From a virus (taxonomy: Duplodnaviria; Caudoviricetes), in the IMG/VR virus record IMGVR_UViG_2706796186_000001, positions 1 to 64,000 of that record: a stretch of 64,000 nt of DNA. One strand, written 5' to 3'. A model generated the notes under the pieces. The model searched no databases, had not been told where the DNA came from, and saw only the letters and a program-made list of their open reading frames with translations. This document shows positions 3,651-5,633 of the stretch, in pieces (position 1 is the first letter of the stretch; the number at the start of each line of letters is the position of its first letter). Both the position numbers and the translations under genes were made by a program.

Positions 3651-3671
3651 ATATGCGAAAGCGAGGTGAAC

Positions 3672-3998
3672 ATGGGAATGTATCGTGAAGGCCCTGAAAG
3701 CACGGTGACTCACCGTAATCATGATTACTCTGTGGATGCATTGCTGGATATAGCGGAACGTCATAGCCTCGTTCAAATTCCAGTGTCTAGAATAGAATGG
3801 ATTTTAAACGAGACTACGCTCGATGATGAGCGGGTTAAGAATGCAGATACGGATTATCCAATAATCGTGCTGCACGAAGGAAGTTTGTATATTGTATTAG
3901 ACGGTGCCCATCGCCTTGCGAAGGCGGTAGCCGAAGGCAAAGACACCATCGCAGCCAAGATATTGGTGCCTGCGAATTTACCGAAACCGGTACGATAA
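3672..3998 (+). CDS. ParB/Sulfiredoxin N-terminal domain protein
   Basis: YPIIV...IVLDGAHRLAKA motif (DGxHR); GAGG SD before ATG 3672. Confidence 0.75.
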   Translation: MGMYREGPESTVTHRNHDYSVDALLDIAERHSLVQIPVSRIEWILNETTLDDERVKNADTDYPIIVLHEGSLYIVLDGAHRLAKAVAEGKDTIAAKILVPANLPKPVR

Positions 3999-4029
3999 AA
4001 GTCTAATTACAAGAATACACTGTATTATG
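3997..4029 (+). promoter_or_regulatory. putative phage promoter upstream of tRNA/ncRNA cluster 2
   Basis: Second exact copy of the 22-bp element, with TATG at the same spacing. Confidence 0.6.
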
Positions 4030-4109
4030 TCGGAAACCCGATTTGATGTTGCACAGAGCGTTACGCTGCGGCGTTTGCTGGTGTGCAGGGTTAGGTCGGG
4101 ATTCTGGCA
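4028..4109 (+). ncRNA. long irregular hairpin RNA at the head of the cluster
   Basis: TGTCGGAA/TTCTGGCA, CCCGATTT/AGGTCGGG and TGCAC/GTGCA nested helices. Confidence 0.4.
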
Positions 4110-4116
4110 CCTATTT

Positions 4117-4202
4117 GGCGGGTTACTCAAGCGGTCAACGAGAGCAGACTGTAAATCTGTTGCCTTCGGGCTTCGTAGGTTCAAATCCTTCACACGCCAC
4201 CA
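4117..4202 (+). tRNA. tRNA-Tyr (GTA)
   Basis: Loop CTGTAAA, long variable arm, CCA; one mismatch in the acceptor stem and one in the T stem. Confidence 0.9.
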
Positions 4203-4208
4203 AACAAT

Positions 4209-4428
4209 GGTACCTGTCACAGCAGCCCTTGAGGCTTACGCGATGATGACTGGTCGCCCATTTTACCGGGTAACACATTCCTGCCAGCGCGCTATTGCCG
4301 CGAAGGTTTGCCCCCGGTGTTGTGCGTTATTCGGGTCTACCCACCATCTGCGGATGGTGCGTTGATGTCTCGATATACGCCATAGGGACGCCTTGAGAAC
4401 TCCGTGAAATTCGGAGAGGTACCACCCA
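4209..4428 (+). ncRNA. tRNA-ended structured RNA (~220 nt)
   Basis: GGTACCT/AGGTACC acceptor-like stem stacked on the CTCCG-TGAAATT-CGGAG T-arm, with several internal hairpins. Confidence 0.55.
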
Positions 4429-4430
4429 TT

Positions 4431-4497
4431 CTTGTGTTTCCTTATCCTGAAGACATTCCTAAGACAAATTCATTCATGGTCGAGGAAACACAGAACC
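4431..4497 (+). ncRNA. small RNA motif, copy 1
   Basis: TGTGTTTCCT/AGGAAACACA stem enclosing sequence shared with 5563-5633. Confidence 0.55.
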
Positions 4498-4503
4498 TAT
4501 TCA

Positions 4504-4579
4504 GGTGCTATCGTCTAGTGGCCGAGGATACTACCCTGTCACGGTAGAGACCGGAGTTCGATTCTCCGTAGCACCGCCA
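4504..4579 (+). tRNA. tRNA-Asp (GTC)
   Basis: Canonical cloverleaf, loop CTGTCAC, G73, CCA. Confidence 0.95.
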
Positions 4580-4587
4580 TTTTCAAA

Positions 4588-4663
4588 TGCGTCTTAGCTC
4601 AGTTGGTAGAGCGCACCCCTGATAAGGGTGAGGCCACTGGTTCAAGTCCAGTAGATGCAACCA
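4588..4663 (+). tRNA. tRNA-Ile (GAT)
   Basis: Canonical cloverleaf, loop CTGATAA, CCA. Confidence 0.95.
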
Positions 4664-4670
4664 GTATTGC

Positions 4671-4747
4671 ATTCCCGTCATCTAGTTGGTCCAGGATACG
4701 ACACTTTCACTGTCGGTACACGAGTTCAAATCTCGTCGGGAATACCA
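4671..4747 (+). tRNA. tRNA-Glu (TTC)
   Basis: ATTCCCG/CGGGAAT acceptor, loop CTTTCAC, CCA. Confidence 0.93.
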
Positions 4748-4752
4748 TTTGT

Positions 4753-4843
4753 AGAGAATTGACTGAGTTGGTTTAAGGTGCTCCCCTGCTAAGGGAGTGT
4801 ATGCGAAAGTGTACCATTGGTTCGAATCCAATATTCTCTGCCA
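4753..4843 (+). tRNA. tRNA-Ser (GCT)
   Basis: AGAGAAT/ATTCTCT acceptor, loop CTGCTAA, long variable arm, G73, CCA. Confidence 0.93.
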
Positions 4844-5019
4844 TGTTCTCTTGCTGTGGGAAATAGAAGCGAACGTAGAAACGCCGGTTAGCTCAAAGCT
4901 TAGAGCGTCTCATCTTCGGATGAGAAGGTTGGGGGCGCAACCCGAAATCCCTATCGGCAACGGCCTGCTTGTCAGGATTAGAAACATCTACGTGGATGGG
5001 TACTTCTACAGCAAGAACA
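4844..5019 (+). ncRNA. structured RNA containing an internal tRNA-like domain
   Basis: 13-bp closing helix 4849-4861/5004-5016 enclosing a tRNA-like module at 4882-4960. Confidence 0.55.
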
Positions 5020-5224
5020 AAACAGTGGGAGCATTGTCCACTGTGACACCGGCAAAGGTTTCGACCTTGCGGGTTGGGCGGAAGCCCGATGTTCCCCCGA
5101 ACGCTGGCCTTCTGGCCAATACAGTGAAAGCTTACCCTTGCCGATGATCACCTCTTCTGCTGCTGCCAACACACTGTATAACCAGAATCAGTCCTGCCTT
5201 AAATGGCAAGCGTTCACCCTTTAC

Positions 5225-5302
5225 GTTTCCTCAAGGCGGCTTGGGGTGTTATCTCTCGGCTCTGTTGGGTAACATCGTGGTTCAACTCCATGGGAAACAC
5301 CA
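5225..5302 (+). ncRNA. tRNA-like four-helix RNA ending in ACCA
   Basis: GTTTCCT/GGGAAAC acceptor, GG-TTCAACT-CC T loop, 10-bp arm with a 12-nt loop in place of an anticodon arm. Confidence 0.55.
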
Positions 5303-5308
5303 AACAAT

Positions 5309-5400
5309 GGCTCCGTAGCTAAATCGGTAGAGGCAGACTTTAATTAGTTCTCCAACGATTTTATAATCGCGTGGTGTAGGTTCAAGTCCTACCGGAGCAA
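5309..5400 (+). pseudogene. degenerate tRNA (Leu-TAA-like)
   Basis: Good D and T arms and a long variable arm; broken anticodon stem, G1:A72 mismatch, no encoded CCA. Confidence 0.55.
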
Positions 5401-5477
5401 GAGCACTGCTGTTAAGTTGGTTAACACCCGACCCATACTCGGATATTCGCACGTTCGATTCGTGCCAGTGCTCGCCC
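5401..5477 (+). tRNA. atypical tRNA with CAT anticodon (8-bp acceptor stem)
   Basis: GAGCACTG/CAGTGCTC, TGTTAA/TTAACA D stem, loop CCCATAC, GCACG-TTCGATT-CGTGC T arm; ends GCCC. Confidence 0.6.
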
Positions 5478-5484
5478 TTATTTA

Positions 5485-5560
5485 GACTCTGTAGTTCAGT
5501 TGGTAGAACGGTGGACTGTTAATCCATATGTCGCAGGTTCGAGTCCTGCCAGAGTCGCCA
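5485..5560 (+). tRNA. tRNA-Asn (GTT)
   Basis: Canonical cloverleaf, loop CTGTTAA, G73, CCA. Confidence 0.95.
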
Positions 5561-5562
5561 CA

Positions 5563-5633
5563 TTTTGCATTGCCCGAGTCCCGAATGACATTCCGGAAAA
5601 ATATCATCCATGGTCACGGGCAGTGCAGAACCA
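5563..5633 (+). ncRNA. small RNA motif, copy 2
   Basis: TGCATTGCCCG/CGGGCAGTGCA stem enclosing the shared motif; ends GAACCA. Confidence 0.55.

Follow-up and report, generated by a model that had tools for sequence, protein, structure and literature searches.

Two copies of a structured hairpin RNA in the tRNA operon of a Machinavirus jumbo phage

Position and structure of the hairpin RNA copies

The stretch of DNA analyzed here, referred to as the window, comprises the first 64 kb of the 240,761-bp genome of a Machinavirus jumbo phage (~240.8 kb; IMG/VR record IMGVR_UViG_2706796186_000001). Positions 4117–5560 of the window are occupied by a + strand cluster of transfer RNA (tRNA) genes, which ARAGORN assigns to Tyr, Asp, Ile, Glu, Ser, and Asn, with an odd Ile(aat) call preceding Asn. 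The tRNAs are separated by gene-free stretches of 100–460 nucleotides (nt). All tRNAs of the operon encode their CCA ends, and every tRNA and flanking gene is located on the + strand. The cluster also contains two copies of a hairpin RNA motif of ~70 nt, which are the subject of this study. Over the region 3900–5900, the window shares ~92% identity with Salmonella phage pSal-SNUABM-04 and several Machinavirus phages of Erwinia, which are ~240-kb jumbo phages.

A search of the whole genome with the covariance model R1 identifies exactly two copies of the motif, both on the + strand: copy 1 at 4429–4498 (61 bits, E = 3e-14) and copy 2 at 5563–5633 (96.8 bits). Matches of the model to the minus strand are much weaker. 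The copies are spaced 1.1 kb apart, with tRNAs between them, and their ends are within 2 nt of those proposed in the initial annotation, which was made from the sequence alone (4431–4497 and 5563–5633). Copy 1 starts 4 nt past the A-CCC end of a tRNA-like RNA and ends 6 nt before tRNA-Asp (4504–4579, + strand). Copy 2 starts 2 nt past the CCA of tRNA-Asn (5485–5560, + strand), the last canonical tRNA of the operon, and its own 3′ end is CCA. Both flanking tRNAs are recognized by ARAGORN and Rfam. The sequence and tRNA calls thus agree with the proposal that each copy follows a tRNA or tRNA-like 3′ end and that copy 2 terminates in CCA. Neither copy is matched by an Rfam family, at the gathering threshold or at E values up to 5.

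The hairpin is composed of a closing helix P1, a three-by-three internal loop, an inner helix P2, a large apical loop, and a short 3′ overhang. Helix P1 has 14 pairs, including three or four A-U or G·U pairs at its A/U-rich base. It is formed in copy 1 by 4429–4442 with 4483–4495, where U4432 is bulged, and in copy 2 by 5563–5576 with 5617–5630. The internal loop (4443–4445 and 4480–4482 in copy 1; 5577–5579 and 5614–5616 in copy 2) is followed by P2, in which CC-GG pairs are succeeded by four more pairs and then two, with single-nucleotide bulges. Copy 1 builds P2 from 4446–4453 and 4470–4479, with A4472 and U4477 bulged. Copy 2 builds it from 5580–5588 and 5604–5613, with U5611 bulged and mismatches C·A at 5582/5610 and A·C at 5584/5608. 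P2 is capped by a loop of 15–16 nt that is unpaired in the predicted folds and starts with an invariant motif; the loop has one sequence form, A, in copy 1 (4454–4469) and another, B, in copy 2 (5589–5603). The overhang is CCU in copy 1 (4496–4498) and CCA in copy 2 (5631–5633). Both hairpins are more stable than their own shuffled sequences, with z-scores of -3.7 for copy 1 and -4.1 for copy 2.

This fold revises several details of the first description. Stems that differ between the copies and yet pair fully had been noted; the pairing holds, but the helix is longer than described, with 14 bp, and includes one bulged U in copy 1. The two conserved interior boxes form a joint pattern that is matched twice in 64 kb, against 0.00 expected from 100 shuffles, but instead of standing free they mostly form the two strands of P2. 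The conserved 3′ GAACC tail is mostly the 3′ strand of P1, and only its CC(N) is unpaired.

Homologs in other jumbo phages

The hairpin has homologs in phages of at least four genera, which besides Machinavirus include Erskinevirus, Wellingtonvirus, and Seoulvirus; a covariance model, as had been suggested together with the initial annotation, was used in searching phage genomes. The five phages nearest to that of the window retain both copies. Copy 2 is 98.7% identical in relatives in which the surrounding 2 kb are ~92% identical. A single copy after tRNA-Asn is present in the Machinavirus phages Caitlin, ChrisDB, pEa_SNUABM_4, and pEa_SNUABM_9, and in the Erskinevirus phages Stratton/phiEaH2 and Asesino. 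Wellingtonvirus has a longer form of the hairpin, which directly follows tRNA-Asn in Kwan/Wellington; in pEa_SNUABM_11, a tRNA-like RNA lies between the two. The Seoulvirus members are pEa_SNUABM_29, SPAsTU, MET_P1_082_240, SPN3US, SEGD1, Proteus phage 7, and the Escherichia coli phages EC001 and Lh1B. In every phage found, a gap of 0–4 nt separates the hairpin from the CCA or CCC that ends the preceding tRNA or tRNA-like RNA, and in most of them the hairpin follows the last tRNA of the cluster.

A pattern scan of IMG/VR returned 25 mostly chance matches, among which the true ones are only the isolates Caitlin and ChrisDB; relatives of the protein encoded downstream, sought in the same database, were not found. 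E. coli genomes contain no sequence match to copy 2.

None of the GenBank records of the homologs annotates the element as an RNA, and mostly only the end of the adjacent tRNA is annotated beneath it. Small hypothetical proteins have been called over the hairpin in SPN3US and Asesino. SPN3US_0003, located on the minus strand (1361–1597 in the SPN3US stretch L045), and Asesino gp20 (4713–4874 in the Asesino stretch L035) overlie the tRNA-like RNA and the hairpin RNA, and gp20 is annotated from the ATG equivalent to that at 5610 in copy 2. In the window, a frame of 344 codons starts at the ATG at 5610 and extends into the gene downstream; together with gp20, this ATG might mark the start of an open reading frame. 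However, in 7 of 11 phages the corresponding frame ends short of the downstream gene or does not match the frame of that gene, and some copies of the hairpin lack the ATG. We rejected the frame from 5610 since it is not conserved among the phages. For the same reason, the two annotated proteins are probably spurious gene calls, and the family amends the annotation in this respect.

Covariation and strand of the hairpin

The 18 model hits correspond to 15 distinct sequences, which were used to analyze covariation. In these sequences, helix P1 is 99% paired, and both partners have changed in 5 of its 14 pairs. Pairing of the structure as a whole is 92%, compared to 34–59% when the pairing partners are slid by 1–3 columns. 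Neither the covariation score nor the number of doubly changed cells was reached by any of 500 shuffles. In Kwan and pEa_SNUABM_11, the core is identical, but the sequences of the stems that enclose it differ completely. The compensatory change that had been noticed between the two copies within one genome is thus borne out by orthologs. The inner helix also varies: one of its positions has U-A, U·G, or C-G, and a second has A-U or G-C.

The cells of P1 include 26 G·U pairs and no A·C. Because the G·U pairs would be mismatches on the other strand, P1 is complete only in the + strand RNA. This fixes the strand of the element and excludes a DNA cruciform and a protein-binding inverted repeat. 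The element contains no promoter-like site either, which together with the G·U pairing identifies it as an RNA rather than as boxes of a DNA-level promoter.

Copies 1 and 2 are paralogous genes of an unannotated family of structured RNAs from SPN3US-like jumbo phages of enterobacteria, which is selected as a + strand RNA fold and has a fixed place in the operon. The expectation of a selected RNA of 65–70 nt with a conserved interior is upheld by the occurrence in four genera, the covariation, the G·U pairs that form on the + strand only, and the covariance-model search. The evidence that the family is real is strong. It is a new family within a known kind, that of small structured RNAs riding in phage tRNA operons.

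Forms of the apical loop

The best-conserved part of the hairpin is its apical domain, not the stem. The apical domains of Caitlin (Machinavirus) and Asesino (Erskinevirus) are identical over their full length despite the differing stems. The loop consists of an invariant 7-nt start and a remainder that occurs in discrete forms. Form A is present in copy 1, Caitlin, pEa_SNUABM_4, and Asesino. Form B is present in copy 2, ChrisDB, pEa_SNUABM_9, Stratton, Kwan, and pEa_SNUABM_11. Additional forms occur in Seoulvirus. The forms are separated by many simultaneous changes, and A and B are each found within both Machinavirus and Erskinevirus. The clade of the window phage keeps one copy of each, A in copy 1 and B in copy 2.

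The discrete forms are consistent with a surface that recognizes a protein or RNA partner and whose specificity differs between forms. That one phage keeps two loop forms suggests two non-redundant specificities. Likenesses of the loop to the tetraloop region of signal recognition particle (SRP) RNA, a GNRA-receptor motif, a kink-turn, CsrA GGA sites, and ToxN sites were judged by eye and dropped, as none of them is conserved across the loop forms.

Release of the hairpin and its possible function

The CC(N) overhang is kept while the flanking sequences diverge. In most members it is CCA, CCC, or CCU (ACC in pEa_SNUABM_29) and follows a helix ending in A. The element shares two features with hairpin-type substrates of ribonuclease P (RNase P): a helix formed by its own 5′ and 3′ ends, and a short 3′ overhang with an RCC(A)-type motif. 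In RNase P RNA, it is the P15 loop that pairs with the RCC(A) motif of such overhangs. In a computed fold, 4.5S RNA of E. coli forms one hairpin with a 3′ ACCC overhang. The 4.5S precursor is listed as an RNase P substrate along with the C4 antisense RNA of phages P1 and P7, the CI RNA of phage P4, and the M3 RNA of phage phi80 (PMC11143913, PMC2190699). Because a tRNA or tRNA-like 3′ end invariably adjoins the hairpin, the tRNA-processing enzymes of the host most likely excise it.

We propose that copies 1 and 2 are transcribed from the + strand within a polycistronic tRNA precursor. RNase P would cut at the 5′ base of P1, and the same cut would leave the upstream tRNA with a trailer of 0–4 nt. 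The 3′ side of copy 1 would be set by the RNase P cut at the 5′ end of tRNA-Asp, and that of copy 2 by exonucleases halting at the helix. The product would be a stable hairpin RNA of ~70 nt, which may act in trans through its apical domain on a protein or RNA partner. We assign a probability of about one half to this reading, according to which the element is a small stable RNA freed by the tRNA-processing machinery, probably by RNase P, and acting through its loop.

The following observations weigh against this reading. The inner helix is imperfect, with 74% pairing in its variable part. The overhang is CAC rather than CC in Stratton, according to the alignment, and in pEa_SNUABM_11, as read directly. 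The phage genome shows no enrichment of sites complementary to the loops, whether as 8-mers, as 12-mers, or at start codons, and it encodes no Ro/TROVE protein, RtcB, or CCA-adding enzyme. The public sequencing runs that hold the stretch are Logan contigs, which probably derive from DNA and provide sequence variants of relatives only, not RNA ends or strand. Finally, a purely cis-acting role in processing would account for the position and the overhang as well.

Such a cis-acting role is the main rival reading and is less probable. The hairpin would then be a "dummy tRNA", a helix cleavable by RNase P that frees the 3′ end of the preceding tRNA, and especially of the last one, in place of RNase E. 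A second effect would be to set the tRNAs apart from the structured trailer, and the excised hairpin would serve no other purpose. There are jumbo phages that inhibit the RNase E degradosome. The position of the hairpin, always 0–4 nt after a CCA or CCC end and mostly behind the last tRNA of its cluster, is in line with this role, as is the combination of a helix with a CC(N) overhang, which is the layout of a 4.5S-type substrate. In E. coli, RNase P alone can separate the tRNAs of some operons, whereas structured terminators otherwise require an endonuclease (PMC2190699). However, a role in processing leaves unexplained that the apical loop is the best-conserved part of the element and identical across two genera, that the loop has discrete forms, and that one phage has two of them. 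Moreover, copy 1 is superfluous for freeing the RNA upstream of it, because tRNA-Asp, 6 nt downstream, has its own RNase P site. If the hairpin is nevertheless a processing module only, it would show how jumbo phages mature the last tRNA of an operon by means of RNase P.

The conservation of the apical domain, the discrete loop forms, the retention of both forms, and the dispensability of copy 1 for processing argue that the freed hairpin has a job of its own. We speculate that the hairpins could be a new class of phage effector RNAs, namely mimics of a tRNA acceptor end that are released by RNase P and carry exchangeable loop "alleles" (A, B, and the Seoulvirus forms). The alleles would have spread between genera, each neutralizing or redirecting a different host factor. 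The target could be, for example, a defense nuclease directed at tRNA, or an RNA-binding protein that is required following export from the phage nucleus. We consider this specific scenario unlikely; if true, a phage with two loop forms would cover two host variants, and loop forms acting as specificity alleles would represent a new kind of RNA-based host-interaction locus.

Alternatively, the loop could pair with a phage or host messenger RNA or small RNA (sRNA), with the loop forms serving as seeds. The hairpin would be a base-pairing regulator or sponge, like C4 of P1 and P7, CI of P4, and 3′ETS-leuZ of E. coli. Its layout resembles that of C4 and CI, which are also hairpins freed from longer transcripts and belong to the RNase P substrates listed above (PMC11143913, PMC2190699). 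Copy 2 is positioned in the 3′ trailer of a tRNA operon, and the loops of 15–16 nt are unpaired in the predicted folds and occur as discrete variants. Nevertheless, the complement of the invariant loop motif is present five times in the phage genome, compared to 3.7 expected. Within the same genome, 8-mers complementary to the loops occur at chance level, 12-mers complementary to either loop with at most one mismatch are no more common than for shuffled loops, and complementary sites do not cluster at start codons. The suggestion that the interior of the RNA pairs with a target found no backing in these counts from the phage genome. The Rfam model of C4 does not match the hairpin, and a pairing function appears quite unlikely to us.

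The initial annotation offered an antitoxin mimic or decoy as an example of a function. As a decoy, the hairpin would sequester a defense protein such as a tRNA-directed nuclease of the host or a type III toxin. Clusters of tRNAs in phages counter defenses that target tRNA (PMC10264068, PMC11464382), and the acceptor-like end of the hairpin, together with allele-like loop forms common to several genera, would fit an arms-race locus. However, neither Rfam nor ARAGORN with relaxed and mitochondrial settings detects a cloverleaf, the element lacks a stem of 5 bp with a 7-nt loop like that of an anticodon arm, and there is no evidence tying the hairpin to any defense system. A tandem array like that of the type III antitoxin ToxI is absent from the phage genome, which has the two copies, and from all relatives found. 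With neither a tandem array nor an Rfam family, and with no enrichment of complementary sites in the phage genome, we regard the decoy function as improbable. We also rejected a tRNA, including a truncated or armless one, as there is no match to RF00005 up to E = 5 and no ARAGORN call with -ps60 or -ps80 or in the mitochondrial mode. The Y_RNA and YrlA models of Rfam do not match the hairpin, with only a weak YrlA match on the tRNAs at 5447–5509, and the phage encodes no TROVE domain, which is found in the Ro partner of Y RNA.

Finally, a promoter, a protein-binding inverted repeat (for instance, one for the ParB-like gene at 3666–3998, as hexamers in the arms of copy 1 resemble parS half-sites), or the start of a reading frame is already largely refuted and very improbable, since the arms pair on through G·U, which would leave them mismatched in DNA and on the other strand, the arms differ wholly between phages while the interior is kept, the frame from the ATG is not conserved, and the hairpin contains no sigma-70-like site, the sole repeated promoter-like motif being located elsewhere (827–847 and 3998–4018).

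Similarity to known RNAs

The nearest parallels of the hairpin are, by position, the rnaD and rnaC RNAs of phage T4, and, by architecture, the 4.5S, C4, P4 CI, and M3 RNAs. The T4 RNAs, also called species 2 (rnaD) and species 1 (rnaC), were sequenced in the 1970s, and small RNAs in phage tRNA clusters have gone unexplained since. Like copy 2, they are structured non-tRNA RNAs located right after the last tRNA of a phage operon, and they are co-transcribed with the tRNAs. In T4, tRNA-Arg is followed by rnaD after 1 nt and by rnaC after a further 6 nt, and in the window, tRNA-Asn is followed by copy 2 and a second hairpin. In contrast to the plain hairpin of ~70 nt described here, the T4 RNAs are 119–139 nt long and have different folds, and rnaC contains a true T-arm. 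A search of the T4 tRNA region with R1 and the filters switched off gave nothing better than E = 0.7. The roles of rnaC and rnaD are still unknown (PMC3014915, PMC9697503).

The 4.5S precursor, C4, CI, and M3 are, like copies 1 and 2, single hairpins closed by their own ends, with a short CC-containing 3′ overhang, and are released from a longer transcript; for copies 1 and 2, the release is predicted. The hairpin is nevertheless not similar to the SRP or C4 models of Rfam, and no antisense target was found in the phage genome. It resembles minihelices made of a tRNA acceptor and T-arm in having a helix of 12–14 bp with an (A)CC(A) end and in adjoining real tRNAs. Unlike these, it has no T-loop, D-arm, or anticodon arm, and its first helix leads on to another one and a large loop. 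Another positional parallel is 3′ETS-leuZ, a spacer of an E. coli tRNA operon that reportedly acts as an sRNA sponge, as described by Lalaouna et al. in 2015. Copy 2 is likewise located in the 3′ external transcribed spacer (3′ETS) of a tRNA operon, and copy 1 in an internal spacer, but the hairpin has no sequence similarity to E. coli.

The hairpin family provides a compact RNA of phage tRNA clusters whose covariation is good, whose fold is clear, and whose place in the operon is defined, and it comes with natural variants of the loop. Its presence in SPN3US, a genetically studied jumbo phage, makes it directly testable.

The tRNA operon and its other structured RNAs

A 21-nt motif at 3998–4018 on the + strand precedes the cluster that begins with tRNA-Tyr. 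It is identical to 827–847, upstream of tRNA-Trp, and with up to 3 mismatches allowed, these are the only two matches in 64 kb, where 0 would be expected. Judging from its sequence and placement, this motif is a plausible candidate for the promoter of the tRNA transcription units, including the operon with both hairpin copies. Downstream of copy 2, the 3′ trailer (5638–5720, + strand) contains a second hairpin (5638–5700) with an ACCA-like tail and a U-rich run (5705–5720). The trailer was folded as part of 5558–5725, a terminator-like site was detected in it, and the hairpin with the U-rich run at ~5700–5720 is likely to be the end of the operon transcript. With a candidate promoter on the 5′ side and a terminator-like U-run on the 3′ side, copies 1 and 2 are placed inside one presumptive tRNA transcript.

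The tRNA-like RNA before copy 1 spans ~220 nt (4209–4427, + strand) and has an acceptor-type stem, a T-arm-like hairpin, an A-CCC end, and a structured insert of ~185 nt. Its 3′ end (4400–4427, + strand) is formed by the T-arm-like hairpin followed by the 3′ strand of the acceptor-type stem and A-CCC. In the minimum free energy fold, 4208–4220 pairs with ~4411–4424, and the hairpin occupies 4400–4416. The 3′ part of the RNA is conserved in relatives. Its overall layout matches that of T4 rnaC, although rnaC has a true T-arm where the RNA of the window has a T-arm-like hairpin.

An extra tRNA at 5402–5473 on the + strand is detected by Rfam with 38.9 bits and was missed by ARAGORN. Its counterpart in SPN3US (~1415–1497 of L045) has a CAT anticodon, ends with GCCC instead of CCA, and is positioned directly before the hairpin. 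The adjacent tRNA-Ile (aat) call (5308–5401, + strand) has a weak tRNA score of 31 bits, and its counterparts are at 4297–4416 in stretch L032 and at 4378–4498 in the Asesino stretch. These calls are 94–121 nt long and represent either a tRNA with an insert or a further tRNA-like RNA.

This "tRNA region" is thus a chain of structured RNAs. The hairpin at 5638–5720 belongs to a second hairpin family located directly 3′ of the element that follows tRNA-Asn, with further members at ~1583–1650 in the SPN3US stretch, 2803–2869 in L042, and ~4355–4420 in L030. The stems of this family vary, and a loop of ~22 nt is kept in Seoulvirus, Caitlin, and pEa_SNUABM_29. The member in the window has diverged and has a 7-bp stem closing at 5638/5694, an ACCA-like tail, and the U-run after it. 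At the record end of Salmonella phage SPFM1 (L048), pieces of the first hairpin, the second hairpin, and the CAT-tRNA occur in scrambled order, which looks like an assembly artifact or a rearrangement.

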